59,976 nt of DNA from a virus (IMGVR_UViG_3300032116_000208:1-59976); one strand, 5' to 3'; shown: positions 9,101-29,757, counted from the stretch's first letter. Translations and numbers: made by a program. The notes: generated from the sequence alone by a model not told the origin.

Positions 9101-10674
9101 CCGAAATCTTCGACGAGTTGACCAAGCGCTACGCAGGTACGCTGGACCCACAGCCAAGCCCGTTCATCAACGGTCTGACCAACATGGCGTCCAAGTTCTT
9201 CTTGGCCTCCAGCCCCGGCTACTACTTGCAGAACTTGACACAGCCGTTCATGATGTCCCTGCCTGCCATGGCAGGTCGTCACGATTACACCAAAGCTGCC
9301 GCTGAGCTGGCCAAGGCGTACGGTGAGTTGGGCCCACTGTTCAAGGATGTGAAGCTGTTCGACGAGCAGTTTGACTTCTCCAAGGTGCCTGCTGACGTGC
9401 GTAAAGCCATCAACGAGTTGGTCAACCAAGGCAAGATTGACATTGGTCTGGCCACTGAGATCAACGAGTACAAGGTAGAAGCCGACAACAAACTCAGCAA
9501 GTTTGCGCAGCGTTTGAACAAGGGCATGCGCTTGGCCGTGCAGAAAGTGGAAGCTACCAACCGCCTGTCTACTGCCATTGCTGCCTACCGTTTGGAGTTC
9601 GCCCGGACTAAGGACGCTGACAAGGCAACCCAGTACGCTGCTGACATCCTGACTGACACCCATGGTGACTACACAGCCTTCAACGCTCCTCGTGCGTTCA
9701 ACACCCAGTGGGGTAAGGTGGCTTTGCAGTTCCGCAAGTTCCAGTTGATTCAGATCGCGTTCTACTCCAAGCTGGTTCGTGACGCGTTCACCAATCCTGC
9801 CGAGCGTGCAGCAGCCATGAAGACTCTGGCCTATTCGCTGAGCCACACTGCCGTGTTCGCTGGCATGATGGGCTTGCCCGGCTACGCTGCCATTTCTGCA
9901 ATCTTGGGCTTCTTCGGTGACGAGGACGAGCCGTACGATCTGACTGCTGAAATGCGCAAGGCGCTTGGCCCTGAGTGGGCTAACATCATCATGCGTGGCG
10001 CTCCAACCGTTGTGGGTATGGACTTGTCCGGCAAGATCGGCGCTGGCAACATGCTGTCCATCATGCCATTCAGTGACGCTGACTTGAGCACCAACGCAGG
10101 TCGCGCCGAAGCTTTCGGTACATTGATTGGTGGTGCAGCTTTGGGGATGACATCCCGCATCATTGACGGCCTTGGCCTGATTGCCAGCGGTGACTACTAC
10201 AAGGGTGTTGAGCGTGTTATGCCAAAGGGTGTGTCCGACGCGCTCAAAGCTGCACGCCAAGGTGCTGAAGGTATGACTCGCCGCAACGGCGATGTGGTCT
10301 TGCCCGACAGTGAGATCAGCTCCCTCGACACAGTATTTACTGCGTTGGGTGTGCCTGCTGTAGAGCAGACTGTAACCTACGAGCGTCAGAACCGCATGCG
10401 CGATTTGACCAAGAACTTCCAAGACCGCACCACGCGTATCAAGAACGACTACGCCAAAGCTGTCCGCGAGAAGGACACTGCTGCCATGGCCGAAGCCCGC
10501 ACTGCATGGACTAAACTCCAGCAGGCTCGCCAGCGTAACGGCTTGACACCACAGCCAGTATCCAGCCTGCTGAAAGCACCGCAGGAACAGAAGGCTCGTG
10601 AGCAGCGCACCGTAGGTGGTGTACAGTACCGCGAAGGCCAGCGTAAACTGGCAGAATCCGTAGCAGCAGATTAA
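3160..10674 (+). CDS. Giant polyvalent internal virion protein (sigma4-like HTH, Tudor/SH3, ART-like, HExxH zincin, PLxRFG-like)
   Basis: 2504 aa; motifs EIADSFGIAESRVRQI, GDTVKNPKLGTGVV, RHGT..AVYLT, HEVGH..EEVFA, YAPIKRTGSY; follows the ejection genes. Confidence 0.8.
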   Translation: MPFVPLRTVVGTDEEDTGFKPLRDVYLGPAPQRGAIAAGLSAGVDQLQGLGYSALGGVADIAGASGARDWANEQARRNQVDASVGGRPDLERIEDQSLGSALPYLGYQVAKQVPTMLGIAGAQLIPGAGQVAGAVGLTRLGAVAPRMLGGGGLQAGSSAAARRAALAQGEVFGTGTLAGSAMGFGSLYGESVEGGDPSPFKSLALAPIYGAAEAVLPAVLQGSLRAPARYSGNIGTRMAKAGGVAGAGEALTELGQNELEMGMRSDLTAEEMASRRLNAAAAGLIVGGSLGTVGGVRGPRRPDTESDLTQPLDTTTRPDPSQFVTQDQTVGLKKFIDVNTGVVRPSRKDYEKQFEAAFNEPSGQFVADAATGVERELTVGELMQRGSTAMDLTQDKPADTAAAATAATNVATTRDPRDVFLRDELKVIPNNNSRQLFTLMEEQGVDPTSPAMVPVWNYAAAKYMTPSRLTKATELMDAAIIQSRKEAPIGTGISTVQQPAGGVGVGGPVVQGSVGNAGRPAPVAGAMDGSAPAAGAPLQQAGILPVAPGQPSTTVTTGAPSGPQASQTIQTAPQGQTATTVPAAAPVRANTTLRLNQQEKLPGETDITNIADIARMTGNAGGIDAVLEDEAGLRADQRDFTDDDLNAVIEEQVGKGKNADRDRQILRAYITARRAVPSGYKGNIAKEIADSFGIAESRVRQIGNPEKLADIAVSMGFDRAQVFDRLGIQSAQKALATELGKLEGELTRLKAKAKPTKADIARMAELDEQITRINDEVEAGDMAAAFKEAGIEGEAGEAFGNLDDAREWQKASTAGSQMAVKLVSIADTIAELKTAAAELNQLGLAQAEAAAAERIKELTAEYQAIVSGYEAKPEAAAPKKGKGKGKAAEKASEEKDAAKEAEAAKFRAERAAKLQADRNGLAVGDTVKNPKLGTGVVKSFAGDGDATTVTVAFQSGQTKELSVKLAKLEKTDAVQVESPAGVSVQPKAETGEKVGRQVRRAPKPAAEGKAQVPAVILTQAEQAAQAWDVVAADFPEAPKFADLTKAQQNTFIGFGEGNWERGDVELELTKLARAAAPTQRAIRLRHGTTAANKAMIEKLGHMDPEGGERQYTYSEFGRKAVYLTRPEGWWLDKEKAAAGRAVVYDSYVDVELPSDANVVTINNMADFEALAKRVGESSAKSMANKLAVDGLDWLSQAKELRSITLDQAVQKYIREQKESAAKYGGFDTKGVNTLGELADFLNTNVNNQYTQTTEAELRTRIRDNWLDAKSYELDTFGESDAMTQKLIDAGVDVIDIAPDADVGVAADQVVVLRPELVKLASAVKQQEAFLRKSRRSVRTADQSGVEFESVEASLDDLSNYSEGIAAGIRSLRDVDMGNAVDAIDSWMVTFSPVSWDAIYTMIDGKRTIIYNGVILKDKVLSTVATLHEVGHGIDEVQGGAGKFSGGAEFRMSRVNGELMSMRPGTVADELLNHWEDASETSALGGMLNYPLDMTDPENRSLTMQELREEVFAQVWAFSNLNGGMDYLRDNLPTTHAFMEKAHEQVKATNYQRAQGAQQGAQSGQVQAGQQNAQPAGAVLRASRQAKQGLIDRNIAKLPKMSQQPVRNLAGALGDIGGAGLDYVVFTSDLVKRAVAAGLPAAQTFSDRLASRNAKVSEEERKIEKIADRYASIEDDAKGSGPGSVNEFLFESTRTGKWGYGKFRDAKMGAAFDALGPKAQQFVKDVFAHGDATLSNKKKIVLDAANSEYDAMIKAAQDAGDTKTEATLKAEKAATLKRFQTLFRIREGMPYAPIKRTGSYVVIGESAEYQKAKANKDTATLKKLESDPDHYHVSFTDTKWQARSLRDRLAEQGVFTDPQVVSRSESFDEAFSGEAMLPALTKMRAAVDRRAQDSTGKKDPTAGKLLNIINQLYLEALAEGSARKSEMRRRGVAGEVDMLQSFTQQGRADANFLASVEFEPKIQDALQQMRNQSRTGDRERKSEIFDELTKRYAGTLDPQPSPFINGLTNMASKFFLASSPGYYLQNLTQPFMMSLPAMAGRHDYTKAAAELAKAYGELGPLFKDVKLFDEQFDFSKVPADVRKAINELVNQGKIDIGLATEINEYKVEADNKLSKFAQRLNKGMRLAVQKVEATNRLSTAIAAYRLEFARTKDADKATQYAADILTDTHGDYTAFNAPRAFNTQWGKVALQFRKFQLIQIAFYSKLVRDAFTNPAERAAAMKTLAYSLSHTAVFAGMMGLPGYAAISAILGFFGDEDEPYDLTAEMRKALGPEWANIIMRGAPTVVGMDLSGKIGAGNMLSIMPFSDADLSTNAGRAEAFGTLIGGAALGMTSRIIDGLGLIASGDYYKGVERVMPKGVSDALKAARQGAEGMTRRNGDVVLPDSEISSLDTVFTALGVPAVEQTVTYERQNRMRDLTKNFQDRTTRIKNDYAKAVREKDTAAMAEARTAWTKLQQARQRNGLTPQPVSSLLKAPQEQKAREQRTVGGVQYREGQRKLAESVAAD
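4625..4825 (+). CDS. Nested +1-frame ORF A (66 aa) in the giant gene
   Basis: AAGGAGG at 4612-4618, TTG start 6 nt later; globular-looking product over a low-complexity linker of the host gene. Confidence 0.6.
   Translation: MAQEFLLYSSLQEAWESGALSFKEVWEMQDALLLSQEQWTEVPQQLEPHFNKLAFFQSPPGNHLPL
6074..6247 (+). CDS. Nested +1-frame ORF B (57 aa, MPFKSKAQ-type basic protein)
   Basis: GGAG at 6063-6066, ATG 6074; N-terminus resembles small stand-alone basic phage proteins. Confidence 0.65.
   Translation: MPFKSKAQQGYLFSQKPKLAKKWADKYGVPQSLPQKVKPKSQPSSSPKPSKQPKRGM
7784..7927 (+). CDS. Nested +1-frame ORF C (47 aa)
   Basis: GGAGAAGG upstream, ATG 7784; overlies the Q/A/G linker after the zincin domain. 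Confidence 0.4.
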   Translation: MNKSKPQTTNAPKVPSKVLSQDKFKLDSKTRSLLGQFLEPAVKPNKG

Positions 10675-10683: not shown

Positions 10684-10938
10684 ATGGCCAAGACACCTGC
10701 ATGGCAGCGCAAAGAGGGCAAGTCCGAGAAGGGCGGGCTCAACGCCAAGGGGCGTGCGTCTTACAACAAGGCGAACCCCGGCAAGCCGGGGCTCAAGGCT
10801 CCTCAGCCAGAGGGTGGCCCACGACGTGACTCATTCTGTGCCCGCATGGAGGGTATGAAGGAGAAGCTGACCAGCGCCAAGACTGCCAAAGACCCCAACA
10901 GCCGCATCAACAAGTCGTTGCGTGCATGGAAGTGCTGA
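10684..10938 (+). CDS. Small basic conserved phage protein (DUF6321-like)
   Basis: GGLNAKGRASY..SFCARM..SLRAWKC motifs; TAAGGAG RBS. Confidence 0.7.
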   Translation: MAKTPAWQRKEGKSEKGGLNAKGRASYNKANPGKPGLKAPQPEGGPRRDSFCARMEGMKEKLTSAKTAKDPNSRINKSLRAWKC

Positions 10939-10939
10939 C

Positions 10940-11128
10940 ATGGCTACCAAAGCAAAGTCCACAGTAAACGCTGCTGGCAACTACACCAAGCCCGAGCTGC
11001 GCAAGCGGATCGTGTCTCAGGTTAAAGCTGCTGCTACCCAAGGCACTGGTGCTGGCCAATGGTCAGCTCGCAAGGCACAGCTTGTAGCCAAGAAGTACAA
11101 GGCCGCTGGCGGGGGGTACAGAGATTGA
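10940..11128 (+). CDS. Small basic protein (WSARKAQ motif)
   Basis: NYTKPELRKRI..GQWSARKAQL..YKAAGGGY. Confidence 0.75.
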   Translation: MATKAKSTVNAAGNYTKPELRKRIVSQVKAAATQGTGAGQWSARKAQLVAKKYKAAGGGYRD

Positions 11129-11358
11129 AAGCCCCCCAAAAATCCCTCAAAGACTGGACCAGTCAGAATTGGAAGACTAAAAGTGGAAAACGATCATCTG
11201 ACACGGGCGAAAGGTATTTACCTGAGTCTGCAATCAAGAGTCTTAGCCCTGCTGAATACGCTGCGACAACGCGTGCAAAACGCGCTGGCAAAGCTGCGGG
11301 GAAACAGTTTGTAGCGCAACCCAAAAAGATCGCTGCAAAAACCGCAAAGTACCGTTAA
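11125..11358 (+). CDS. Small basic protein (DUF5872-like)
   Basis: TTGA overlap start; SLKDWTSQNWKTKSG..ERYLP..KQFV. Confidence 0.7.
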   Translation: MKAPQKSLKDWTSQNWKTKSGKRSSDTGERYLPESAIKSLSPAEYAATTRAKRAGKAAGKQFVAQPKKIAAKTAKYR

Positions 11359-11377
11359 CCCCAACTGGAGAATCCCC

Positions 11378-11527
11378 ATGATGAAAGCAAAGAAGCCGAA
11401 CCCGTTCGGCAAAGGCGAGTCCAAGATGATGGAAGCCAAAGAGAAGAAAATGGCTGGTGGCAAGAAAGCCTACGCTGCCATGGAAAAGAAGTACGAGGGT
11501 AAGAAGTCCACCTCGAAGATGAAATAA
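11378..11527 (+). CDS. 49-aa Lys/Met-rich protein
   Basis: GGAG RBS; MMKAKKPNPFGKGESKMMEAKEKK...; below the ORF-track cutoff. Confidence 0.7.
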   Translation: MMKAKKPNPFGKGESKMMEAKEKKMAGGKKAYAAMEKKYEGKKSTSKMK

Positions 11528-11538
11528 GGAGAACCACC

Positions 11539-11676
11539 ATGATGTACGGAAAAATGATGATGGCCAAGGCCCCCGCAAAAGGCGGTAAGAAAGCTGCCCC
11601 TTTCAAACCCTGCCCCGGCTGCAAGAGCCCTGCTAAGTGCAAGGCTGCTGGCAAGTGTTTGGCCAAGTCCAAGTGA
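11539..11676 (+). CDS. 45-aa Lys-rich protein with four Cys
   Basis: TAAGGAG RBS; FKPCPGCKSPAKCKAAGKC. Confidence 0.7.
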   Translation: MMYGKMMMAKAPAKGGKKAAPFKPCPGCKSPAKCKAAGKCLAKSK

Positions 11677-11679
11677 CGT

Positions 11680-11710
11680 AAAAAAACCCCCGGGCCTTTC
11701 GACTCGGGGG
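11680..11710 (-). terminator. Rho-independent terminator where the two arms converge
   Basis: CCCCCG-AGTC-GAAA-GGCC-CGGGGG followed by T7 on the - strand. Confidence 0.85.
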
Positions 11711-11751
11711 TTAAGGTTCCTCAACACAAAGGAGCTGACATGACAATCAGC
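11680..11751 (-). ncRNA. Putative 72-nt trans-acting antisense sRNA
   Basis: Own promoter, two small hairpins plus terminator, complementary to several SD/AUG regions (see findings). Confidence 0.65.
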
Positions 11752-11757
11752 GGGGCG

Positions 11758-11787
11758 ATCATACCTCGTTGGCTGCTGCATCGTCAA
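11758..11787 (-). promoter_or_regulatory. Sigma70 promoter TTGACG-N18-TATGAT for the sRNA
   Basis: -35 at 11787-11782, -10 at 11763-11758, inside the last codons of the primase gene. Confidence 0.7.
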
Positions 11788-14700
11788 ACTGGCTCGTCAC
11801 CAACGTCAACACTGGCGTGGCTGAGTCTGCGTTCAAGCGTCGTGTGTCCACGACAATGCAACGTGTCTGCTGCGACGTGCAGTCAGTACCACGCGTGATG
11901 ACAAACTTCTCACCCTGAGACACAAGCGCGTTGGCTTCCTTGATGCTGGCCACCATTGAATGGTAGTCCATGCGGTGAGCCATGCACCATTCCCGCACTT
12001 CCTTCTGAGACAAGATCAAGCGACCAGCTAGTTCTTTGCTGTTGGCCGTACCTAGGATGTAGCGCCCAGCGATAGGGCCATTGACTCTGTTGCGCGGGGT
12101 CTCAGGGCCACGTCCATCACGGCTGTCACGGCACTCGGTAGTGACAATAATTCGCTGGCTCAGCATGCTAATCATGCGCTGGAACGCATCTTCAGACGAC
12201 ACGGTGTTGTTCTCTTCAACCGAATCAGACAGCTCACGCAGCAGGTTCACGGTGAATTTGTACAGCTCACGGATATCAAACTCCACAATGCCCAGCTTCT
12301 TGGCGATCTTGGCAATCACGATGGTACATGCGCTGTGAGCCCGGTAGAAACGGAACTTGGGATTGGACAGCACCTCAGTGAACTTGCCCAGCATGGTCTG
12401 CATGTCGCGGTAGACCTCGGCTTCATTGGCCAGAATGTACTTGACCATGGCCGCACCAGCATGGCCAGAGTTGGCAGTCATCTTCTTGATGTTCTCGGCA
12501 GCTACCATGGCAGACGCTGACCTCCATGCATCCTCACCCTCTTCTGTGTCCGGGTACAAGCCTCGGTCTACCAGCATCAGCGGGTCGTAGCGGTCCACGT
12601 TGAGCTGAATCAGGCGCACGGCCTCGGCCTGTGAGTTGGCTTGGTTAGCCGCCAGCAACCCGTAGAAGTCACGGTTGCCAGTCACGTATACGTTCAGCCG
12701 CCACTCGGATGACTTGGCGAACACCACACCGCCGCCCTTGGATGTAAGGCGAACCTTCTCTTGGCCGTTGGATACGCCATAGGCTACGTCACTGAACACG
12801 CCAGCTTCCATGTTGGTCAGCTCATCAGCCAGCACAGGGATGTTGTTGTACACACCCAGCGTAGCCCACAGCGCGTTGGTGGTGAAGCCCTCCTTGGAGT
12901 TGAGCGTCATCTTCTCAGGGTTGCCGAACGCAGCCAGCGCGGCGTGACATGCGGTAGTCTTACCCCGGCCAGACTTGCCGCCTTGCAGGGCCAGAATCAA
13001 GCCCTTGTACAGGTCTTCGCAGTGGTGCGATACCAGTGAGCCCCAGCCAGCGCATACGGTGTATTGCCAGTGAACGGCCTCCGGTCTGTTGTACATAAAG
13101 TTCATGGCCTCGGCGTAGCCTTCCAAGCTGCCACGGCCATTCTTGAAAGCGTTGGCACGCTCCTTGGCGTTGCCACCCACCAGTACTTTGCGCTCTGTGC
13201 CGTCTTGGGCGAACAGCGTCTCACCGATAAGGAACGACTTGTGGTCATCCTTCCAGCCAAAGGCTGTCATGGTGTTGGTCTCAGTGATGCTGCGCTTTAA
13301 GGACTGCAGTTGGTCCAGCAAGTATGCCGCCATGTGCTCTCCAGCGTTTTTGTGGTTGCTCTTCGTGAGCTCGTATCGGGCCATAGCCCTCAGCAAATCC
13401 GTTGGTGATGCCACGGACTCACCTGAAATCTCAAAGTCACGGATGCGCTTGTCTGGTAGGTGCAGCCGGATGCCATAACGGAACGTGCCGTCTTCGCCAC
13501 GGATACGGGTGGTTGGGTAGAACAGGTTCTCACAGAACGGGAAAATCTGCATGACCCCTTCCTTGTCGGGGATGAGGCGGCTCAGCAGCCCAGCGTCCCA
13601 CTGGTATCCGCGAGGCAGCGCTGGTATGGTCGCTTGCTCTGCAACACCTTCCTCAGTAACAGTCTCAGCAGTAGTTTCTTCTGGCTCCGGCATCACCCGG
13701 CCCAGCACCAGCGGGGTCTTGACCTTGTCTTTGAACGAGCAGCCCGTGCAGCCGTCAGGGTTGCACTTGCTGAAGAACTCGCACGTCGTTGGTCCAGCAG
13801 TCCATGTGTCGTAGCGGATGTCCCAGTCAACTTGGCCATGGCCAGTTTCTTCGCGCTTGGAACTCCATGACTGAGCTAGCTCACGACCGTCAACGCAGTG
13901 GGTCAGCAGACCGATAACGCCGCGCCAAGTCTCGTAGTCCACGTCACCCATGGTGTCGCGCATCTTGCCAGCCTGCAGACACTTGTCAGCCATGACGTTG
14001 GCGTCTACCGGGACTTCAGGGTATTGGGTCAGGTGCGCCGTCAGGTCTGAGTTCAGGTCAGTCGGCTGATACTGTTTCTTGGGTGTCTCTTTGACAGGCT
14101 TGACGCCATTGGCTTTGGCGTAGTCAAACAGCGTTACAGCAAATTCTTTGGGGTCAATCGGCTCGCATGTAGCTATGACCTTGACCGTCTTAGCGTCGCC
14201 GTTCTTGCGGTTTGTAGAGCCCGCAGGGCGCAGGATAGAACTGAAGTCAGCCGTACGTGTAGGGTCAGCGATGACCTTGGCGTGGGCCAGCGTAGCCTTG
14301 AGGACTGTAGCCACCTTGCGCCACAGCTCATGGCCGATCTCATGGGTCAGGGGCCAGTAGGCATGGATGCCGTTGCCCGAATCCACCAGCATGGGGCGTG
14401 GGATACCGACGTCTTTGGCGAACTTGGCCATGGCCACACAAGCGTCTTTCTTGGTCAGGTAGCCCTGCCCCTTGTCGAACTTGTCTTGGCCGCAGTCAAC
14501 GTCCACCCAGAACGCCTTGGCCTTGTCCCAGTTCTCAGGTATTCGATACTTGCGCTTGGGGTTGCCTTTGATGTCGAGCTCTTCCAACTCGATCACGGCT
14601 TTTTGATACGTCGCACACGCATGGTACACAGACAGCTGCTTGCTATCAGCCATACCATCAATGGCTTCGGCCATTGTCTCAAGGTCAGTGTAGACCTTGT

Positions 14701-14791
14701 GTGCTGGGAATTTGTAGCCCTCTTTGAACAGGGCGAGGTAATGGATGCCGAACTCCGGCAGTATCGTCTTGAGAAACTCAAGGGTGTTCAT
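11759..14791 (-). CDS. DNA primase (AEP/RepB-like) - DUF927/helicase fusion
   Basis: WVDVD and VDSGNGIHAYW primase motifs, Cys cluster (TCEFFSKCNPDGCTGC), FGW motif, Walker A GKSGRGKTT, DE Walker B. Confidence 0.85.
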   Translation of the reverse strand: MNTLEFLKTILPEFGIHYLALFKEGYKFPAHKVYTDLETMAEAIDGMADSKQLSVYHACATYQKAVIELEELDIKGNPKRKYRIPENWDKAKAFWVDVDCGQDKFDKGQGYLTKKDACVAMAKFAKDVGIPRPMLVDSGNGIHAYWPLTHEIGHELWRKVATVLKATLAHAKVIADPTRTADFSSILRPAGSTNRKNGDAKTVKVIATCEPIDPKEFAVTLFDYAKANGVKPVKETPKKQYQPTDLNSDLTAHLTQYPEVPVDANVMADKCLQAGKMRDTMGDVDYETWRGVIGLLTHCVDGRELAQSWSSKREETGHGQVDWDIRYDTWTAGPTTCEFFSKCNPDGCTGCSFKDKVKTPLVLGRVMPEPEETTAETVTEEGVAEQATIPALPRGYQWDAGLLSRLIPDKEGVMQIFPFCENLFYPTTRIRGEDGTFRYGIRLHLPDKRIRDFEISGESVASPTDLLRAMARYELTKSNHKNAGEHMAAYLLDQLQSLKRSITETNTMTAFGWKDDHKSFLIGETLFAQDGTERKVLVGGNAKERANAFKNGRGSLEGYAEAMNFMYNRPEAVHWQYTVCAGWGSLVSHHCEDLYKGLILALQGGKSGRGKTTACHAALAAFGNPEKMTLNSKEGFTTNALWATLGVYNNIPVLADELTNMEAGVFSDVAYGVSNGQEKVRLTSKGGGVVFAKSSEWRLNVYVTGNRDFYGLLAANQANSQAEAVRLIQLNVDRYDPLMLVDRGLYPDTEEGEDAWRSASAMVAAENIKKMTANSGHAGAAMVKYILANEAEVYRDMQTMLGKFTEVLSNPKFRFYRAHSACTIVIAKIAKKLGIVEFDIRELYKFTVNLLRELSDSVEENNTVSSEDAFQRMISMLSQRIIVTTECRDSRDGRGPETPRNRVNGPIAGRYILGTANSKELAGRLILSQKEVREWCMAHRMDYHSMVASIKEANALVSQGEKFVITRGTDCTSQQTRCIVVDTRRLNADSATPVLTLVTSQFDDAAANEV

Positions 14792-15863: not shown

Positions 15864-16250
15864 TTATGCCGAACGGCGGATGTTGACAACGCGCTCTGAG
15901 CGAATATTTATGCCCGGTGGTAACTCGTTGTCGTTGTTGTCGCGGAACTGCTCAATGGCGGTCTTTGCAGCCCGCACCTCAATCAAGCTCCACTCTTCGT
16001 TGGCCTTCACAAATTCCATGAAGGCTTCACGATCTGCCACGCTGGCGGTTGTACGCACAGCGGTGTAAGCCGTACCAAACTCAGTCTTCACTGAGTCCAT
16101 GCCGGTCTTGTTGAATACGTCCAACAGCTTGGCTTCGAGCTTTTCCATCTTGTCATTGATGGGGGCAACCGAGGCGTCGAAGTCGGACTTCATCTGCGCT
16201 TTCTTGTCACGTAGCTGTATGTACAGCGTGACGGCTTCTGATAATTTCAT
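15864..16250 (-). CDS. Conserved phage replication-module protein
   Basis: Coiled coil + SVKTEFGT..D..AF..F..PPG motif, between SNF2 and SSB-like genes. Confidence 0.7.
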   Translation of the reverse strand: MKLSEAVTLYIQLRDKKAQMKSDFDASVAPINDKMEKLEAKLLDVFNKTGMDSVKTEFGTAYTAVRTTASVADREAFMEFVKANEEWSLIEVRAAKTAIEQFRDNNDNELPPGINIRSERVVNIRRSA

Positions 16251-17818
16251 TGGTCTATCCGCTCTTTCATCATGTCGAGTAACACACCCTGCATAGACTG
16301 TTTGTCTTGCAGTCTCTTATACACACGCCGCTCAACATCCGTACCTGCAATGTGAACGATCACTGTGGTTCTTGTCTGGCCCGGTCGCCTTACGCGAGCA
16401 CAAGCCTGTTCGTAAGTCTCATTCGAGTGAACCGGGGCGTACCACACGATGGTGGTTGCTGCCGTCAGTGTCAGCCCATGGCTCATGGTCGATGCGTTAG
16501 CCACCAACACACGAGGGTCAAGGCCTCGTTGAAACTCACTAAAAATTCTGTCGCGCTCGGACTTGCTAGTCCCGCCATGCACCGTTTCTACCGCCCAGTC
16601 CTTACGCAGTTCTGACGCCACGCTTTCCAAGGCTCCGGTCAGTGGCACGAATACGATGACTTTGCCCTCAGACTCCTCAATGATTTCCTTGAGAACGTCC
16701 ATGCGAGGCTTGGATGGGATGACAACCTCTTCGCCACCTGTCCCGTACGCGACACCACATGCGATCTGGATTAACTTGTTGGCCTTGACAGCCTCGTTAA
16801 CCGCAAGAATCTGCCCACCGGAGTACTCGGTAGCCAGCTTGTTCATCATGTCCTTGTACGCCTTATCCTGCTCCTTGGTGAGGGCCACATCACGGGTGAT
16901 GAACGTCTGCTCGGGTAAGTCCACGCAGTCATCCAGCGAGAACCGGATAGCTGGCTGCATCATCTGATACACGGCGTCGTTGGCGTCCTGCCTAGGTGCC
17001 CACTTGAATGGTGTGATCTGCCGCATCACGCGGTCACGGAACGCACTGAAGTACTTGGGTACGCTGGAGTTATCAGGTGTCACCAGCTTGCATTGCGCCC
17101 ATGCGTCGGTAGGAGCGTTGGGAGTCGGAGACCCCGTCATGCCCCACACACGGCGTGTGGACTGCTTGTTGCAGATGGTGTTCAGAATCTTCCAGCGGTC
17201 AGTACCAGAGTTACGTGCCAACGCAAGTTCGTCTACAACGATCAGGTCAATGTCATCTCGCTTGGCCAGCTCGTCTTTGATGGTAGCCAGCCCGTCGATG
17301 TTGATGACGTAGACATGCACGTCTTGCTTGAGCAGCTTGTTGCGTCTGTCCCGTGAGCCATGCAGCACCACGCAGTCTAGGTGCGGGAACGTCTGGAACA
17401 CTGAGTCAGCCCACGTACGCTCCATGGTAGACAGTGGACATACAACGAGCATCTTCTTGACTGTCTTGGTACGACGCAGATAGTCGTACGCCCACAGTGC
17501 GCTGTTGGTCTTGCCAGTGCCCATGCCGTTGAGGCAGAACGCACGGCTGTTCATGGACAGAAATGAAGCCGTCTCCAGTTGAGCGGAGAACGGACTGTGC
17601 CTACCACTGACCTTGGGCCAGTCATAGTGCATGGGCATGGGGTCAGGAACCTCGAAGCCCAAGTTACGCAGCACCCGAGTTTCATCGGGTCTGTGTGGCA
17701 CTGCTACCAGTGTCGCGCCTTTGTGTTCGACCAACACTGAGGTTGGTATGACAGTCGTTACTCTTGTCGGGTTGCGAAGCTTGAGTACGACTGCTTTTTT
17801 GTCTTTGTGAATCAGCAT
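16247..17818 (-). CDS. SNF2-family helicase
   Basis: MGTGKT, VVCPLS, VVDE, MTGSP, HGLTLTAA, QACARVRRPGQ; likely start MLIHKDKK. Confidence 0.9.
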   Translation of the reverse strand: MLIHKDKKAVVLKLRNPTRVTTVIPTSVLVEHKGATLVAVPHRPDETRVLRNLGFEVPDPMPMHYDWPKVSGRHSPFSAQLETASFLSMNSRAFCLNGMGTGKTNSALWAYDYLRRTKTVKKMLVVCPLSTMERTWADSVFQTFPHLDCVVLHGSRDRRNKLLKQDVHVYVINIDGLATIKDELAKRDDIDLIVVDELALARNSGTDRWKILNTICNKQSTRRVWGMTGSPTPNAPTDAWAQCKLVTPDNSSVPKYFSAFRDRVMRQITPFKWAPRQDANDAVYQMMQPAIRFSLDDCVDLPEQTFITRDVALTKEQDKAYKDMMNKLATEYSGGQILAVNEAVKANKLIQIACGVAYGTGGEEVVIPSKPRMDVLKEIIEESEGKVIVFVPLTGALESVASELRKDWAVETVHGGTSKSERDRIFSEFQRGLDPRVLVANASTMSHGLTLTAATTIVWYAPVHSNETYEQACARVRRPGQTRTTVIVHIAGTDVERRVYKRLQDKQSMQGVLLDMMKERIDQ

Positions 17819-18048
17819 TGGTTGAGTGAGTCGTTCAGGAGAATCGCTTCGTCTGTAACGTGATCCCCCCATGTTTGAAGCCAGTATTTCTCCTGCAATT
17901 CCAACTCGCGTTGGGTGTGATGGCACACACGCTCGTACTTTAGAGCTAGCTGCCGTGCTCGCGCCGTTGTCACCCCGAGAACTTTTCCTGCTTTCTCGTA
18001 AGTAAGGCCCTGCGTGTGCTTTAGATTCCATGCAAGGCAGTACCGCAT
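17812..18048 (-). CDS. Small sigma4-like HTH protein
   Basis: GLTYEKAGKVLGVTTARARQL. Confidence 0.6.
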   Translation of the reverse strand: MRYCLAWNLKHTQGLTYEKAGKVLGVTTARARQLALKYERVCHHTQRELELQEKYWLQTWGDHVTDEAILLNDSLNQC

Positions 18049-18061: not shown

Positions 18062-18328
18062 TCACTTGTCTGGGTTGTATGAGCCACTGCCTTTCCTCCA
18101 TCCACGGTTGGTTGTTCGGTCTTGCACAGCTACGTTGCCCTTGTGGTTGCCGCCGCCGTTCTCCAGTGACTTCTTGTGCGCAACGTCTTTACCATCGCCT
18201 ACCTTGGCCTTGCCATCTTTGATAGCTTCGCGCCGTGCAGCGTTGTTCTTCACACGCTTGGCCACTTCTTCAGGGCGAGCGTTGTATTCCTTCTGGTACT
18301 TAAGTTTTTGGGGTGTCGACTTGGTCAT
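18062..18328 (-). CDS. Small HNH-like protein
   Basis: GDGKDVAHKK...GN..V....NR. Confidence 0.65.
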   Translation of the reverse strand: MTKSTPQKLKYQKEYNARPEEVAKRVKNNAARREAIKDGKAKVGDGKDVAHKKSLENGGGNHKGNVAVQDRTTNRGWRKGSGSYNPDK

Positions 18329-19248
18329 GCTAGTACTCCTTCTACGATGTAAGCCTTACGTTGTTTGAGTTCGCCAGTCCCACGAATGAACGGGCTCCAC
18401 CAGTACACTCCGCTGCTTCGCCGCTTGAAATGTCCGCGCACAAGGTGAGCTTCTACGTCAGCGCGTTGGCTAGTAGTTCCTTTGCAGACAGTTTCTACTG
18501 CGGATAGGGAGACTACAGTGTACTCAGTGCTAGCCAGTATCTTCTTACGCCGACCAAGCATGGTACCTACACCTTGCCTTGGGCCAACTTTTGTTCTGGC
18601 AATACCTGACTTGCAGTTAATGACTGACTCCCAAATAAACATCAACGGGCTAACTTCTTCAAGAACCTCTTGCTTAAGTTTAGGAGTCATGCGTAGCAAA
18701 CCTTGCACAAACTGATTGGTATTCGACGTCGCGGTATTTGCCTGACTAAGAATGTGGCTGCTGATTGCATACGCCATGGGGCTCGGGGAAAAAGCACATT
18801 GCGTGGTTGCAGTTTGTTGGTCTGTGAATATATTAGCCATAAATGCGCCGCCACCTAAAGTGCCGTTATCAAACTCCCAAAATGGCCAAAACTCAAACGC
18901 AGGCTGACCGCTAATAGCAGTACGTCTAATTCGCGCTGCGACTCTGCGAATACTCAGCTTGTTCTCACCTTCAACAGCGTTTCGTAAAGTAGCGATCTCT
19001 GGGGTAATAGGCATTTCTACGACCAACGAGTCGTATGGCATGTGCAGCTCTTGCGCCTCGACTAACTCCCCAGCTTTCTTTTTGGATAGCTTTTGTATTT
19101 CCAGTGCCGTTTTGGGGGACATGACGAATATGGCGTCTACTTTAAATTCACTCGCCGGTATACGCAACGTTTCTATCTTTTCAGTGCTCATGGCAACAGC
19201 AGCCAAAGGCGAAAAGCCCTTGTCATCAGTTGTGAACGCTCTAGTCAT
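18325..19248 (-). CDS. Hypothetical protein with C-terminal H.VRGH.R motif
   Basis: 307 aa; HLVRGHFKRR..WWSPFIRG; overlaps both neighbours by 4 nt. Confidence 0.75.
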   Translation of the reverse strand: MTRAFTTDDKGFSPLAAVAMSTEKIETLRIPASEFKVDAIFVMSPKTALEIQKLSKKKAGELVEAQELHMPYDSLVVEMPITPEIATLRNAVEGENKLSIRRVAARIRRTAISGQPAFEFWPFWEFDNGTLGGGAFMANIFTDQQTATTQCAFSPSPMAYAISSHILSQANTATSNTNQFVQGLLRMTPKLKQEVLEEVSPLMFIWESVINCKSGIARTKVGPRQGVGTMLGRRKKILASTEYTVVSLSAVETVCKGTTSQRADVEAHLVRGHFKRRSSGVYWWSPFIRGTGELKQRKAYIVEGVLA

Positions 19249-19565
19249 TTTTTAGGCTCCAATTTTGAATAAACGTCGATCACGTCGAACAACATCGGCA
19301 TGTCATCAGGATTGTCCACTACCCAAGCAAATCCGTCAGCATTTCTGATAGCGTCAATTACTCTTTCTTGGTTTGACGTAATGTTCTTTTTCTTGCCGGG
19401 GGCCTTGGTCTCAAGGGCTATGAACAGCCCACGGTAGCAGCAGATGATGTCGGGGATGCCGACCTGTCCCATGCCGTTGGATACAGGCATGAAGTACCAT
19501 GCGCCACGCTCTTTGAGAAACTTCTTGCAAGCGTCTTTGACCTTGCCTTCTGGTGTACTAGCCAT
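19245..19565 (-). CDS. VRR-NUC nuclease / junction resolvase
   Basis: PEGKVK..GIPDII..LETKAPG..Q. Confidence 0.9.
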   Translation of the reverse strand: MASTPEGKVKDACKKFLKERGAWYFMPVSNGMGQVGIPDIICCYRGLFIALETKAPGKKKNITSNQERVIDAIRNADGFAWVVDNPDDMPMLFDVIDVYSKLEPKK

Positions 19566-20214
19566 TCTTCCTCCCGTTGAATTCGCAGCTCAATACTGAG
19601 CACCACGCCTTACACAACCCTGACGTTTTGGCTGGCCATTTGTCACGCTCGTATGCAGATTCCAGCTTGGCCACACGGGGCACGAACCCCTGCCAGATGA
19701 TGGGCACTTCCTTGCGCTCCACAGGCTTCCAGTCGATCTTCTTTTCCTTGAGCCAGATGAAACCCGTAGTGACCTTCTGTACTTCAGGGTGATGGGCAAA
19801 CACGTAGTTGGCGTACAGGTCTAGCTGCTCGGTGGGTTTGCGCTTGCCAGTCTTGTAGTCCGCGACCACAGCGTTCTTGCCATGGATGACAACCAAGTCA
19901 GCGATGCCGCGAGTCCATGAGCCTTTCCATTCGGTGGGCTGGAAGTTACGGTCAAGGGCGTATTCCTCCTCACACAGCTTCTGGCCCGGTAGTGCGGCCA
20001 GCTTGAACGCCAGCTTCTGCCACTGAGTCATGCCTTCTGGCAGCATGACACCGTCCTTGATGAAGTCTTCAAAGGCAGTGTGTACCTTTGTGCCCCACTC
20101 TGTGTGTATCGTAGGCGGCTCAACCACGTCTCGTTTGACCTTGAGGTGGTAGAACTTACGCGGGCAGGTCTCGAACGTATCCAATTGCGAGTACGTCCAT
20201 GCTGGGTTTGTCAT
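19558..20214 (-). CDS. PD-(D/E)XK Cas4/RecB-like exonuclease
   Basis: CPRKF, GTKVH, GIADL, DYKTGK, QL.LYA, C..WC....C. Confidence 0.9.
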   Translation of the reverse strand: MTNPAWTYSQLDTFETCPRKFYHLKVKRDVVEPPTIHTEWGTKVHTAFEDFIKDGVMLPEGMTQWQKLAFKLAALPGQKLCEEEYALDRNFQPTEWKGSWTRGIADLVVIHGKNAVVADYKTGKRKPTEQLDLYANYVFAHHPEVQKVTTGFIWLKEKKIDWKPVERKEVPIIWQGFVPRVAKLESAYERDKWPAKTSGLCKAWCSVLSCEFNGRKNG

Positions 20215-20280
20215 GTCATTCCAATGCGGTGACGCCCCAATACGTCATTTGACGGTTGGGGCTTTGTGTTCTGAAGCTCT

Positions 20281-20308
20281 ATGGTAGCAGCATGGTGAGT
20301 GGTGTCAA
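20281..20308 (-). promoter_or_regulatory. Sigma70 promoter TTGACA-N16-TACCAT (extended -10)
   Basis: -35 at 20308-20303, TGc-TACCAT ending at 20281, intergenic. Confidence 0.7.
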
Positions 20309-20311
20309 CGA

Positions 20312-22267
20312 TTATTTCACTTCGCCGTAGGTGTCACCTAAGTCACCCTCAGACCATGTGATTAGCTCTGGCCACCACGACACACCGCTACGCATAATGC
20401 CCTGCAATTCGTCAAGAACGTCTTGCGCCACAGTCTCTGGAACGATGTAAACCAACTCGTCATGCACCGCCAGTGACGGACGGAACTTCGTGCGCTGGAA
20501 CATACGCTGGGCATGCTCGGCGATCACGTCACGGGCAAGGGCTTGCACCAGATTCTCAACGCCTTTTCCGGCATAGATACGGGCTCGTGCGCGGCCACTG
20601 CCGTACCACCATTCGGTCTTGCCGTTGTCGGACTCTTTGGTCAGGCCGGGGTAGTAAATCTTGCGCCCGGACGGTAGGCGCACAGCATGTTTTTCTGTAA
20701 CGCACAGACCCCACGGGTCAATGGCTACCTCTGTACCTTGCTGGATGTTAGGCAGGCTGTTCTGGAACGCCTTCCAGCCCTTAACGATGTCATGGTATGT
20801 GTCACGCCATGCAGTCACCACCTCAAGCGACTCAGCCTCTGACAACTCCAGACCGCCCATCAGCTTGGCCACCTTGCGGAACGTAGGCGCACCAGCACCG
20901 AAGCCCAGACCCAACTGAGCGATCTTGGCCAGCTGTCGCTGGTCTTTGGACACGTCGCTCTCGTCGATGCCGTAGCGTGCAGCAGCAAACGATTTGTACA
21001 GGTCAGCCTCAACGTCGGACGCATACAAGTCCATGGACTGCTTGACCTTCCACAGGAAGTGGTTGACCCGCAACTCGATGCCGGACAAGTCAGCTACGAC
21101 AACCTTGTGCCCCTTGGGTGCTCGCAGTGAGTTACGCAGCGCATCAGAGGGCTTGGGCACCTTGGGGTTGATACGTGGCAGGTTCTGCATGTTGTACTGC
21201 TCACCAGACCAGCGGCCAGTGGTGTCAGCGCCAGCGTACTTGAGTGGCACGGGAATACGCCCGTCGCATGCGTCAGCGGCCTTGATGAACGCTTGCAGCC
21301 TTGTCTCCAGCAGGGTTGACTTAACCTCTAGGCGCACACGGGCAGCAGCAGCGATGATCGGGTCTTCGTGGTCTTGCAGTGCGATGAACGCATCGTCAGT
21401 CTTGGCCAGTGCCGGTGTCATCTTGGCCGGGTTGGTGGGCGACTGCTTCATGGGTACATCCACGCCACGGGACTTAAGCAGGTCACCAAACTTGGCAGCG
21501 CTTGCCATGGTCATGCGTACATACTCTTCGGGGTCGGTGGGGTCGCCTTCCAGCTTACGGGCCACTGATTCAGCTTGCGTAAACAGCAAGTCGTACAAGT
21601 CGTTGAGTGACTTGGCCTTCTCAGCCTTCACATCTTCCAGCGCCTTGTTCACCAGCTTGTAGTCGAGCTGGAACTTAGGCTCCACAAGCATGCGTGTAGT
21701 CATGTCGATGTGCAGCAACTCTGCCTTGGGAAATCCCTTGGCCAGCTTCTTGAACAACTCAGCGCACAGGTCAGTGTCCACCTTGTTGTACTCTTCCATG
21801 TCAGCCAGCTCATCAGGGGTGAAGTCGCACAGGTGCTTGCCCTTGGTGTTAGTGGCTTCTAGGTCTAGCTTCGCACCGACCTTCAACTCAGCGGCCAGCT
21901 TCTTGAGCGACACGCCGATGAGGAACTTGCCACCAACGGACGTGCCTGTCTTGGAATACTTGGACCGCGCCATGGCAGCAGTGCAGCCGTACATCTTGGG
22001 CTTGATGTTGAATCTCCATGCAAGGATCATGGAGTCGAAGCCGGACATGTTGTGGCCAACGACGATCTTGTCGTCCCAATCCATGTCTTGCAGGTGCTCA
22101 CGGATTACCTCCTCACCAAACAGTACGTATGTAGGCTCGTCGCCAACACGTATAGCCACAGAGATGATCTCGGTCTCAGGGTGTGTGATGTACTCGGTCG
22201 GAGACATACGACTCAGCGTGTGGGTCGTGCTCCAGTAGGATTCAAAGTCAATGTAGACGGGTGTCAT
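20312..22267 (-). CDS. polA: Family A DNA polymerase with 3'-5' exonuclease domain
   Basis: IDFES, GHN..FD, Y..D exonuclease motifs; TTGRWSG, DLSGIELRV, RQLAKIAQLGLGFG, VHDE. Confidence 0.95.
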   Translation of the reverse strand: MTPVYIDFESYWSTTHTLSRMSPTEYITHPETEIISVAIRVGDEPTYVLFGEEVIREHLQDMDWDDKIVVGHNMSGFDSMILAWRFNIKPKMYGCTAAMARSKYSKTGTSVGGKFLIGVSLKKLAAELKVGAKLDLEATNTKGKHLCDFTPDELADMEEYNKVDTDLCAELFKKLAKGFPKAELLHIDMTTRMLVEPKFQLDYKLVNKALEDVKAEKAKSLNDLYDLLFTQAESVARKLEGDPTDPEEYVRMTMASAAKFGDLLKSRGVDVPMKQSPTNPAKMTPALAKTDDAFIALQDHEDPIIAAAARVRLEVKSTLLETRLQAFIKAADACDGRIPVPLKYAGADTTGRWSGEQYNMQNLPRINPKVPKPSDALRNSLRAPKGHKVVVADLSGIELRVNHFLWKVKQSMDLYASDVEADLYKSFAAARYGIDESDVSKDQRQLAKIAQLGLGFGAGAPTFRKVAKLMGGLELSEAESLEVVTAWRDTYHDIVKGWKAFQNSLPNIQQGTEVAIDPWGLCVTEKHAVRLPSGRKIYYPGLTKESDNGKTEWWYGSGRARARIYAGKGVENLVQALARDVIAEHAQRMFQRTKFRPSLAVHDELVYIVPETVAQDVLDELQGIMRSGVSWWPELITWSEGDLGDTYGEVK

Positions 22268-22698
22268 CAGTACATGCCCTCAAGGTTAGGTGGTGCATAG
22301 TCCGGGCCTTTGGCAATCTTGCCGCTGTCGTTGAAGATGGGATAGCCGTTCTTGTCGAACTTGCTGTAGTTGCTGCGGTTCACGGCAGTCACAGCCTCGG
22401 CTGTCTTCATGCCAGCACAATGGCCTACGCCCACAGATGTAACGATCTGGTCAGCCAGCGAGTCAAGGAACTCTTTGCGGTCAGTGATGTACGCACTAGC
22501 ACTGCCGTTCTTTAGATTGTCAGCCAGCCAGCTCAAAGCTGTACGCGCCCGTACCAAAGCGTCAGCGTGTGTTGTGTTGATGACCGACAGCATCTCTACG
22601 ATCTCCTCTAAGTGACAGCCAAGCTGCACGTTGAAGTTCTCTTCGTTGGGGTTAGGTCTGGCACGTTTGTGCCACAGTTCAATTTGATCTACGCTCAT
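22267..22698 (-). CDS. MazG-like nucleotide pyrophosphohydrolase
   Basis: EEIVE, D.LAD, V.RSN.SK, GKIAKGPDY..P. Confidence 0.85.
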   Translation of the reverse strand: MSVDQIELWHKRARPNPNEENFNVQLGCHLEEIVEMLSVINTTHADALVRARTALSWLADNLKNGSASAYITDRKEFLDSLADQIVTSVGVGHCAGMKTAEAVTAVNRSNYSKFDKNGYPIFNDSGKIAKGPDYAPPNLEGMY

Positions 22699-22970
22699 TA
22701 CTGCTCCAATGCGTTTATTGCCATGATCCGGGCGATGACGTCCGGGATTTTCTCGTCGTCCTTGACGATGTAGAGGTGGTGCTGCCAGTCAGGGCCGCGC
22801 TGCTGCGGCTTGTATTGTGATGCCTTAACGATGTAGCCGTTGGTGGCTTTGATGATGGAAAAACTCAGCATAGTATCTTCCTCGGATACTCTGTTTGCTT
22901 TAACCACGTCCGTCGCGAGCGCTACGTCATTTGACATGAGCCAGTTACGCAGCCATTGTTTGATACTCAT
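22698..22970 (-). CDS. Hypothetical protein (NGY motif, paralog 1)
   Basis: IIKATNGYIV; GGAG RBS; ends LEQ. Confidence 0.75.
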   Translation of the reverse strand: MSIKQWLRNWLMSNDVALATDVVKANRVSEEDTMLSFSIIKATNGYIVKASQYKPQQRGPDWQHHLYIVKDDEKIPDVIARIMAINALEQ

Positions 22971-23296
22971 TACTGCTCCAGTTGGAATGCGACCATCGCT
23001 GCTGCAATGATCTCGTTGACTTCGGTGATTGTCTGCGCGATGTGCGTCGTGTACTCGTAGCCTTCCTTGGTGCCGATGTTGACTACGTAGCCGTTGGACA
23101 CCTGCTGCACTTCAATGTTGCCGCTGAAGATTTTCTTGCTACGTGTTTGCCTAATTTGGGATTGATAGCCCTGTATGGCACCCTGTAACCCAGAACTGGT
23201 CAAGGTACTGGCATTCACTGCGTTAATGTTGATAGCGCCCTGCGCTGCGTTATGCAACGGGCTACCAGTGATGGTGTGCATTAAGTTTCTGAACAT
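22970..23296 (-). CDS. Hypothetical protein (NGY motif, paralog 2)
   Basis: VQQVSNGYVV; ends LEQ. Confidence 0.75.
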   Translation of the reverse strand: MFRNLMHTITGSPLHNAAQGAININAVNASTLTSSGLQGAIQGYQSQIRQTRSKKIFSGNIEVQQVSNGYVVNIGTKEGYEYTTHIAQTITEVNEIIAAAMVAFQLEQ

Positions 23297-28650: not shown

Positions 28651-29757
28651 TCATTGCTCCAAGGTAAAGTGGATATTGTCGCCGTAAGGAGCCACGATGT
28701 CACTAGAGATACACCAGACGACTGGGTACTCGGGCTCGTTGGCTGTGTTGAAGTCTGTGTAACCGTCGGTGAGGCACACGAACACCTCGGGCTTGATACC
28801 CTCCTTGGCGATGTAGTTGAAGCCCTCCTCCATGTCAGTGCCACCGCCACAGTAGAACGTCAGCGCCACCTCCTCGCCCTGCTCGAACACCTCGTGCTTG
28901 GCTACGCTAGTGTCAACATACAAGACATGGACGCGGGTGGGGTTGCACATAGACACGATGCGCTGTAAGTGGCCGTTGTAGTGGTCAAGCTCGACCTTGG
29001 AGATAGAGCCAGACACATCGACTTGGATGACAACCTCGCCCATCTCAGGGGACTTGCCTGTGGATGGAAGATAGCAGTCAACGAAGCGGCGGTTAGGACG
29101 CGACCATGTGTAGTCACCACGGGTGAATGTGGTCATGTAGCGCTCAAGAATGTCGTGCCATGGTGTCTGTGTGTCGATGAGGTCAGCGACGATCTTGGCC
29201 AGCGCACCGGGCATCTTGCCCTGAGCCTTGGCTGCTTGGGCAGCTTGGGCAATCTCTACGCGAGTCTCGGCGTCGATGCGGTCAGCCTCCTCTGGAGTGA
29301 GTGGTGTGCCACGCTCAATCAAGTCATCACCAGTACCACCGGGGCCATGGCCGTCAGGCTGGTCAGGCAGCTTGTTGTAGATGACGTCTACTGTCTCGTC
29401 CTTGGAGCCGGGCATATTGACACAGCCCTCGATCTGCTGACCGATGCCAGCATCCTTGAGCATGTCGTTAATCCATGCGTCACCAGCGATGTTCCACTTC
29501 TTGGCGTTACGCGCACCACGTCGCAGTGCATGCTGACCGATGACATGGCCGACCTCATGGCACAGCAAGAACACAAGCTCGTCAACAGACAGCTTGTCAA
29601 CGAAGTCCTTGTTGTAGTAAATCTGACCGCGCTGGTCAACAGCTGCAGTCTTGATGGTGTTGTCCTCGATGAGCTTGCGCTTCATGAGGATGGATGCAAA
29701 GAACGGATGCTGTGTGACAACAGCAACTTTGGCTCTGTCAAGTGTGGTAACTGCCAT
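28651..29757 (-). CDS. DUF2201-type metallopeptidase + VWA domain protein
   Basis: HEVGH..H, WNIAGD..IN; MIDAS DVSGS, GGGTD, TDG. Confidence 0.92.
   Translation of the reverse strand: MAVTTLDRAKVAVVTQHPFFASILMKRKLIEDNTIKTAAVDQRGQIYYNKDFVDKLSVDELVFLLCHEVGHVIGQHALRRGARNAKKWNIAGDAWINDMLKDAGIGQQIEGCVNMPGSKDETVDVIYNKLPDQPDGHGPGGTGDDLIERGTPLTPEEADRIDAETRVEIAQAAQAAKAQGKMPGALAKIVADLIDTQTPWHDILERYMTTFTRGDYTWSRPNRRFVDCYLPSTGKSPEMGEVVIQVDVSGSISKVELDHYNGHLQRIVSMCNPTRVHVLYVDTSVAKHEVFEQGEEVALTFYCGGGTDMEEGFNYIAKEGIKPEVFVCLTDGYTDFNTANEPEYPVVWCISSDIVAPYGDNIHFTLEQ

Follow-up and report, generated by a model that had tools for sequence, protein, structure and literature searches.

A candidate small RNA of an uncultured phage, complementary to the start region of an exonuclease gene in the same replication block

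The 59,976-base record IMGVR_UViG_3300032116_000208 of an uncultured phage (the window; a whole virus, rated 100% complete) carries on its minus strand a block of replication and recombination genes, in which a gap of 97 nucleotides (nt) separates the stop codon of DNA polymerase A from the start of an exonuclease gene. Two short segments of this gap, lying on either side of a hairpin, are mirrored in a candidate small RNA (sRNA) encoded behind the last gene of the block, 8.5 kb away. The locus therefore raises the question whether the exonuclease leader is a target of this sRNA and, if so, in which geometry the two RNAs would pair. Sequence comparison argues that the start region of the exonuclease is, on balance, a likely target of the sRNA from the 3' end of the same block, translational repression being the expected outcome. 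The elements, their conservation and their complementarity were computed, and from these we infer the production of the sRNA, its binding and the direction of its effect. Coordinates refer to the window and, unless marked (+), to features of the minus strand.

Site A (AACACAAAG, 20270-20262) occupies the 5' single-stranded flank of the leader, and site B (UGACAUGACAA (TGACATGACAA), 20218-20208) spans the ATG of the exonuclease at 20214-20212. Their exact complements, CTTTGTGTT (11731-11723) for site A and TTGTCATGTCA (11746-11736) for site B, follow the stop codon of the primase gene on the same strand. The two-sided complementarity around a hairpin, proposed from the sequence alone (the sequence-only reading), is hence borne out, with exact matches of 11 and 9 nt in antiparallel, colinear order. 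When the 75-nt leader was compared with the 41-nt 5' part of the sRNA in 20,000 dinucleotide shuffles, a run of at least 11 nt occurred with a probability of 0.00105, and such a run together with a colinear second run of at least 9 nt with a probability of 5e-5, i.e. once in 20,000. The same reading had assigned both sRNA stretches to loop regions; they are exact complements, but half loop and half stem, each consisting of a 6-nt loop and part of one stem arm of the first or the second stem-loop (SL1 or SL2) and not of a pure loop.

By its sequence features, the 97-nt gap is a promoter followed by a structured 5' leader. A sigma-70-type promoter-like site, TTGACA-N16-TACCAT (20281..20308; TTGACA at 20308-20303, TACCAT at 20286-20281, with TG before the -10 element), agrees with the consensus at 10 of 12 positions and lies directly 3' of the polymerase stop (20314-20312); it was found where it had been predicted, as was the weak Shine-Dalgarno sequence GGA (20222-20220). 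Judged by eye, relatives with as little as about 66% protein identity still have both hexamers at this spacing, with a variable spacer, and relatives L031, L034, L035 and L041 retain the hexamers with altered spacers. Site A begins about ten bases beyond TACCAT and runs into the hairpin GCCCCAA.CGUC-AAAU-GACG..UUGGGGC (20262-20234; 29 nt, 10 pairs). The hairpin and its flanks had been read correctly except that the G between AAA and CCCC, which is single, had been written twice; this G, at 20262, is both the last base of site A and the first base of the hairpin stem. The leader was compared in 49 exonuclease loci from viral contigs and 41 from metagenome contigs. Among 21 sequences, 93.3% of 210 cells of the hairpin are paired, against 31-59% in slid controls, and six pairs show two-sided changes. 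The linker that follows (GUCACCGCAUUGGAA, 20219-20233) carries the GGA, and its CATTGGA is nearly invariant in relatives.

The leader hairpin could also be read from the opposite strand, as an intrinsic terminator of plus-strand (antisense) transcription with CTTTGTGTT behind it, in which case site A would be the complement of a T-tract. Read on the plus strand, the hairpin has TTTGTGTT behind it, several relatives are A-rich at this place (T-runs on the other strand), and a similar hairpin with CTTTGTGTT lies at 17693-17727 (+). However, the 16 G·U cells of the gene strand, as opposed to three the other way, would become A·C mismatches; furthermore, no plus-strand gene or promoter feeds such a terminator, the terminator scan did not list the leader hairpin, and the match across the AUG would be left unexplained. 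This explanation is accordingly given hardly any credence.

Certain further observations concern the leader and sequences like it. The hairpin at 17693-17727 (+) is terminator-like, is followed by CTTTGTGTTC, and lies inside and antisense to the SNF2 gene; the 9-mer CTTTGTGTTC is present three times in the window, where 0.82 copies would be expected, and each copy has a hairpin in front of it. In relatives L034, L110 and L111 a helix that closes around the hairpin is formed between the first leader bases and the Shine-Dalgarno region (for example GAGCUUCA with UGGAGCUC) and could sequester the ribosome-binding site; in the window leader it is weak or absent. In L026 (record G012) the promoter, the hairpin and a ATGACAAC start lead into an extra small open reading frame (ORF) inserted before the exonuclease gene, which has its own start behind it.

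The second partner is an element of about 70 nt (11680..11752). It comprises SL1 (11751-11734), whose loop UGUCAU contains the anti-start triplet CAU and which is followed by the anti-Shine-Dalgarno sequence CUCCUU, SL2 (11733-11718), a terminator stem (11710-11687) and a U7 tail (11686-11680). A promoter-like site, TTGACG-N18-TATGAT (11787-11758; 10 of 12 consensus positions), precedes it; the -10 hexamer overlaps the primase stop (11761-11759) and is invariant in 15 of 15 aligned relatives, and over 13.5 kb no other promoter-like site scores as well as this one and the leader promoter. The predicted fold has an energy of -34 kcal/mol (z = -3.46). A covariance model built from 15 relatives and then used to scan the relatives' records located the element in 14 of 30 relative virus records (5 of the 5 at least 90% complete) and in 7 of 7 further records (6 of the 6 at least 90% complete), i.e. 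in all 11 relative records of at least 90% completeness, as well as at 18 places among 30 metagenome loci. No relative record that extends into this region lacked it. In an alignment of 32 copies, which was fitted to the covariance model, SL1 is 100% paired (slid controls 34-56%), with compensatory changes in four of its six pairs, the terminator is 98.4% paired and SL2 75.6% paired. The strand is fixed by many G·U pairs, those of SL1 occurring only on the minus strand. Among the unpaired letters, the loop CAU(G) and the CUCCUU behind SL1 are the most constant, and the letters of the SL1 stem vary; the reverse complement of the sRNA, CCTCAACACAAAGGAGCTGACATGACAA, resembles a translation start (AAGGAG-N5-ATG). 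Because of its promoter, terminator, fold z-score, SL1 covariation and presence in all relative records of at least 90% completeness, a real sRNA on the minus strand is supported by comparative criteria. Features of Hfq-type sRNAs are present as well (a Rho-independent terminator with a U-tail and the U-rich single-stranded seed CUCCUUUGUGUU), and the A/C-rich 5' flank of the leader, AGAACACAAAG, is suggestive, and only that, of an Hfq-type target (A-R-N motif).

A small plus-strand ORF (11740-11898), which starts at the mirror-image start region, was considered as another product of this locus and rejected, because the distance from its ATG to the next conserved block, judged by eye, is 18 nt in most relatives but one base longer (19 nt) in two lineages, L059/L060 and L070, and because the G·U pairs of SL1 occur on the minus strand only. 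Below the gathering scores, a search of 11620-11820 against Rfam with E up to 10 gave eight hits, among them RF02278 (20.6 bits, E = 0.035) and RF02837 (19.2 bits). An adapter-like loose end at 11712 was also seen in one RNA-library run.

If the element were nothing but a structured 3' untranslated region and terminator between convergent operons, its complementarity to the leader would be due to chance or to motif sharing, and there would be no RNA acting in trans. The junction is indeed convergent, the terminator has A's and T's on opposite sides, and the overlap of the -10 hexamer with a stop codon could partly explain the conservation of the former. Nevertheless, the loop CAU and the CUCCUU are kept as the letters of the SL1 stem change, the matches to start regions co-vary in many lineages, for which a mere terminator would have no need, and the double match has a shuffle probability of 5e-5. 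We consider this explanation very improbable.

The case for the exonuclease leader as a target of the sRNA is carried further by predictions of joint folding. Cofolding of the two RNAs, the check named in the sequence-only reading, gives a stable predicted dimer: with the messenger RNA (mRNA) taken from 20273, the dimer reaches -70.9 kcal/mol compared with -55.4 kcal/mol for the two monomers, and with the mRNA taken from 20276 it reaches -71.5 kcal/mol; the minimum-energy dimers lie 15.5-16.3 kcal/mol below the monomers. In ensemble binding energy the exonuclease (-15.4 kcal/mol) ranks second among the 74 called genes of the window (mean -6.7, standard deviation 3.5), and in the nearest genomes it ranks 3/86 (G031), 2/71 (G032), 1/83 (G005), 5/83 (G036) and 6/40 (G037). 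These ensemble energies replaced an accessibility-corrected score, which discards duplexes of more than 40 nt and is unable to handle split sites. The pairing across the AUG is also found in relatives: an uninterrupted Watson-Crick run of 7 nt or more spans the AUG in 22 of 33 distinct genome pairs, and one of 3-6 nt in the other 11 (L026, with its extra ORF before the exonuclease, and L100, whose leader is cut by the contig end, were dropped, and L054 had no leader partner). Furthermore, in two pairs of closely related sRNA alleles the loop base facing position +4 tracks the leader (A with U in G005 versus G with C in G031; A with U in L007 versus G with C in L043), and in the distant relative L113 a different sequence (ACATGGCTAAC) again gives a match of 11 bp, accompanied by GGAG. 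The models support the start region of the exonuclease as one of the best predicted partners of the sRNA in the window genome.

The geometry of such a complex is a separate matter. The segment of the sRNA around SL2 has two options, as it can pair with site A, the hairpin being looped out, or imperfectly with the linker behind the hairpin (UCACCGCAUUGGA), which would give one contiguous register with site B. For an mRNA beginning at 20273, the contiguous form (-70.9) is favoured and the forced two-site form (-64.4) is 6.5 kcal/mol worse; for one beginning at 20276, the two-site form is the minimum (-71.5), as site A is extended by five more pairs (CUUCA with UGAGG), and the bases of site A have intermolecular pairing probabilities of 0.6-0.8. 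In the models, the two registers are about equally stable on the exonuclease leader. Among relatives, L034 is predicted to form a three-block looped-out dimer with 10 + 6 + 7 bp around the hairpin (ddG, the free-energy change, -20.7), and only the contiguous form is predicted for L022, L016 and L113. A run of at least 8 nt complementary to site A is present in 9 of the 33 distinct pairs, seven of them in the clade of the window and two in the L034/L110 lineage, where a different site A (CAACCACGAA / AACCACGAA) matches the lineage's own sRNAs; in shuffles, runs of at least 8 and at least 9 nt have probabilities of 0.027 and 0.0065, respectively. Of the two sites that were to be looked for in relatives, the pairing over the AUG was therefore recovered widely (at least 7 nt in 22 of 33) and site A in only 9 of 33. 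Similarly, the bipartite pairing with a looped-out hairpin proposed earlier holds for the minimum dimer from 20276 and for L034 and L110, but gives way to the contiguous form from 20273 and in L022, L016 and L113. On the models, the looped-out geometry is credible but not general.

A stricter version would have the complex depend on both sites A and B, with the hairpin as a looped-out spacer at a three-way junction. The minimum-energy dimers of the window and of L007 have the two-site form when the mRNA starts at 20276, L034 and L110 offer the SL2 segment only the looped-out geometry and do so with site-A letters of their own, a distal contact of 5 bp is added in L011, and the shuffles make the double match very unlikely by chance. 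These points are set against the deficit of 6.5 kcal/mol from 20273 and the small share of pairs with a run of at least 8 nt at site A. Site A is moreover broken within the window's own clade (a central mismatch in L003 and L004) and absent (4-6 nt) in L025, L021, L016, L019, L022 and L011; sequence resembling AACACAAAG is a leader motif common to several genes of the window phage, and steric constraints at a three-way junction do not enter the energy model. A clamp that needs both sites is consequently regarded as doubtful.

The motif just mentioned, YTCAACACA(CA)AGGA, to which AACACAAAG belongs, lies 5' of the minus-strand starts at 35218, 32916 and 28419. In the form YTCAACACA(CA)AGGA-N-ATG, it marks the start regions of a gene without assigned function (35236-35216), of a MoxR-type ATPase gene (32938-32914) and of another gene without assigned function (28439-28417). 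At the start of the ATPase gene, the 11-mer at 32938-32928 is an exact complement of the SL2 region of the sRNA. Another match, TGACATGACA (31373-31364), is a 10-mer complementary to the SL1 region and sits at a stop/start junction, TGA-C-ATG, with GGAGC just upstream; the true start of the 30497-31402 ORF is likely to be 31369. In the early region, the MoxR-type ATPase gene (31918-32916) and a DUF2201 metallopeptidase/VWA gene (28651-29757) rank 1 and 6 of 74 as predicted partners of the sRNA.

In the distant relatives, it is mostly the start region of a gp157/Gam-like gene that is mirrored by the anti-Shine-Dalgarno part of the respective sRNA, with lineage-specific letters. This start was looked at in G031, G005, G015, G018, G022, G024, G026, G027, L101, L110, L111 and L114. 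The match is 15 nt long in G031, 14 nt in L111, 11 nt in G015, 10 nt in G024, G027 and L101, and 9 nt in G005 and G026, so that it reaches at least 9 nt in 8 of 19 sources (shuffle probability 0.0065). In the subclade of the window, the start of the gp157/Gam-like gene falls within the last part of the SNF2 gene, and its match to the sRNA has been lost. The sRNA is thus best described, from these comparisons of sequence, as a multi-target anti-start-region RNA whose best predicted partners differ between lineages.

This breadth leads to a further explanation, namely that the match to the exonuclease leader is a by-product of a common start-region motif, the real targets being elsewhere: the gp157/Gam-like gene in most relatives and the MoxR-type ATPase with its neighbours in the window. 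It would account for the resemblance of the sRNA reverse complement CCTCAACACAAAGGAGCTGACATGACAA to the regions at 35236-35216, 32938-32914 and 28439-28417 and for the 10-mer shared with 31373-31364, for the gp157-like starts that match their own sRNA over at least 9 and up to 15 nt in 8 of 19 sources, and for the ATPase gene outranking the exonuclease in the window. Yet the SL1 loop follows the second codon of the exonuclease (ATGACAA or ATGGCAA) and does not follow the start of the orthologues of the 31369 gene (ATGACAC in G031 and G037), the exonuclease ranks sixth or better among 40-86 genes in six genomes, the exonuclease leader is matched over long, lineage-specific stretches in L113 and L034, and the gp157-like intergenic start region has been lost in the window's subclade, where that target is no longer evident. 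We judge a pure by-product to be unlikely, if less remote than a bare terminator.

Several results weigh against the exonuclease leader as the target. The sRNA is not dedicated to it, since three or four other start regions in the window also match, and the MoxR-type ATPase gene, not the exonuclease, ranks first (-17.6). In distant genomes the exonuclease ranks 13/71, 24/54, 68/78 and 76/90 (in a fifth, a rank of 8/90 was computed from a wrong start codon, and in G022 the exonuclease was not scored), and the gene starts of relatives were taken from a crude ORF caller. Four lineages (L038/L030, L111, L110) have A opposite C at +4, and a tree test of the covariation at this position, with three independent well-supported contrasts of which two go in the same direction and one is unchanged, gives p = 0.5 (sign test). 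For the sRNAs of L038, L030, L032, L040, L045, L046, L111 and L121, the cognate leader ranks only 23-32 of 33; these eight distant sRNAs are predicted to bind most foreign leaders better than their own. The G/U-rich sRNA forms low-energy duplexes at many sites, many of them rich in wobble pairs, and for this reason an uncorrected genome-wide duplex scan discriminates poorly (the leader is best at -40.5, the next site reaches -39.2); the accessibility-corrected scan puts the exonuclease at only -4.4. The favoured register flips with a 3-nt change in the assumed 5' end of the mRNA. Lastly, RNA-library contigs from relatives, most of them 90-95% identical, span both loci (11500-11773 and 19799-20381) and further parts of the window, and, as they come without strand, ends or levels and with possible DNA content, they are no evidence for expression of the sRNA.

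With these points included, repression of the exonuclease start by the sRNA is still rated somewhat likelier than not, and it may be pictured as follows. The CAU-containing loop of SL1 would pair over the exonuclease AUG, with 11 bp in the window, and over the GGA, and the SL2 segment would pair either with the 5' flank, leaving the hairpin looped out at a three-way junction, or imperfectly with the linker. A duplex over the ribosome-binding site would block binding of the 30S subunit, and expression of the exonuclease would fall; translational repression is the most likely effect because the duplex would cover both GGA and AUG. Since the downstream cistrons overlap the end of the exonuclease gene (19558-20214 / 19245-19565 / 18325-19248 / 18062-18328), the effect would spread along the operon and probably lower the expression of the downstream recombination genes as well. 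As the sRNA is encoded where the block ends and would act on its beginning, the arrangement would amount to delayed negative feedback. A more ambitious account is somewhat less likely than not: a family of phage sRNAs, encoded at the 3' end of the replication and recombination operon, mirrors the start region and co-evolves with the starts that it silences, its main partner having switched from the gp157/Gam-like gene of most relatives to the exonuclease in this clade, with a split site around a hairpin, a three-way junction and feedback on the first cistron.

The genes that would come under this control form a replication and recombination block. DNA polymerase A (20312-22267) is followed by the exonuclease (19558-20214; 218 amino acids), the first cistron after the leader promoter, which matches PF12705 (E = 1.5e-14; 55 bits, cut-off 22) and the PHROG 69 exonuclease family. 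As the PF12705 score is above its cut-off and that of the TIGR00372 Cas4 model (29.6 bits, cut-off 65) is below, the product is classed by family models as a RecB/Cas4-like PD-(D/E)XK nuclease and not as a Cas4 equivalog. Next come a small nuclease-like protein (19245-19565), with a match to PHROG 93 and a VRR-NUC score of 16 bits against a Pfam cut-off of 23.8, two ORFs of no assigned function (cistrons 18325-19248 and 18062-18328), an SNF2 helicase (16247-18031), the gp157/Gam-like protein (15864-16250), a further ORF of no assigned function and a DUF927 primase-helicase (11759-14791), the last gene of the block, with its stop codon at 11761-11759. The sequence-only reading had proposed the gating of a nuclease-rich operon with an exonuclease, VRR-NUC, HNH and SNF2. 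The overlapping cistrons are compatible with joint control, but VRR-NUC stays below the Pfam cut-off, and protein family searches of the window genes showed no HNH gene in the minus-strand block; the sole PHROG labelled 'HNH endonuclease' (phrog_1314) matched the DUF2201/VWA gene (28651-29757), upstream of the polymerase gene.

In the whole window, no tRNA genes and no Rfam families at gathering score were found, and a megablast of 19000-23000 against the phage database gave no match; by exonuclease protein, the nearest cultured phages are Rhizobium phages (38.8% identity). On the plus strand, an ORF of 2504 amino acids (3160-10674) has 600 C-terminal residues that match PHROG 10089 (DarB-like antirestriction; E = 8e-60). 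Between it and the convergent terminator common with the sRNA lies a row of very small lysine-rich ORFs (10684-11676 (+); 84, 68, 49, 45 and perhaps 99 amino acids) with strong Shine-Dalgarno sites.

Among known systems, the c4 antisense RNA of phages P1 and P7 (RF01695) is among the closest; it represses the icd/ant operon (PMC8198154, PMC2864571). In both cases a phage sRNA and the phage mRNA on which it would act in trans come from one transcription unit, with repression as the expected result. The c4 model gave no match in the sRNA region 11620-11820, even at E up to 10. As reportedly described by Citron and Schuster in 1990, c4 pairs through two regions (a'/b'), so that a second likeness would be the use of two separate complementary stretches around the ribosome-binding region, here of 11 and 9 nt. 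The c4 RNA is encoded upstream of its target in the immunity operon and is cut out of a precursor, whereas the window sRNA follows the last gene of the operon and has a separate promoter-like site. Furthermore, the target of c4 is an antirepressor, whereas the candidate targets in the window are replication and recombination genes of an apparently lytic block, are several in number and vary in their best match by lineage.

The OxyS-fhlA pair of Escherichia coli forms kissing complexes at two sites (PMC2946933, citing Argaman and Altuvia 2000). Two sRNA stem-loop regions contact two mRNA sites there as well, one of them at the ribosome-binding site, so that a stable complex represses the mRNA, and an upstream leader element modulates the interaction; the second fhlA site, however, lies in the coding region and not 5' of a leader hairpin. 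OxyS is in addition a chromosomal bacterial stress sRNA without sequence relation to the element described here. The window sRNA is not a member of the c4 or OxyS families. RF02278 (a toxic sRNA of Betaproteobacteria) and RF02837 (anti-hemB of Burkholderia) are likewise small terminator-ended RNAs and were hit on the right strand with weak similarity, but their scores (20.6 and 19.2 bits) are far from the gathering values of 50 and 49.5, so that the sRNA is not a member of these families either; the hits probably reflect the terminator and the U-rich parts. The similarity of 11680-11753 to these two families is a faint hint at a betaproteobacterial host group, and no more. The T4 protein RegA represses translation of several early and middle phage mRNAs by occupying their initiation regions; RegA is a protein, whereas the agent proposed here is an RNA that would recognise its targets by base pairing. 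Literature searches, which were general or aimed at OxyS and c4, found no description of the sRNA element.

To our knowledge, trans-acting regulatory RNAs that lytic phages aim at their own genes are barely documented outside c4 of P1/P7. The comparison of about 30 genomes of uncultured freshwater phages suggests an sRNA family that is absent from Rfam, mirrors the ribosome-binding region and shows lineage-specific complementarity to two different phage genes. If true, this would provide a clean natural example of co-evolution between an RNA and its targets and of target switching, a compact two-site antisense module, and an RNA-based feedback on the dosage of nuclease and recombination genes in these phages.

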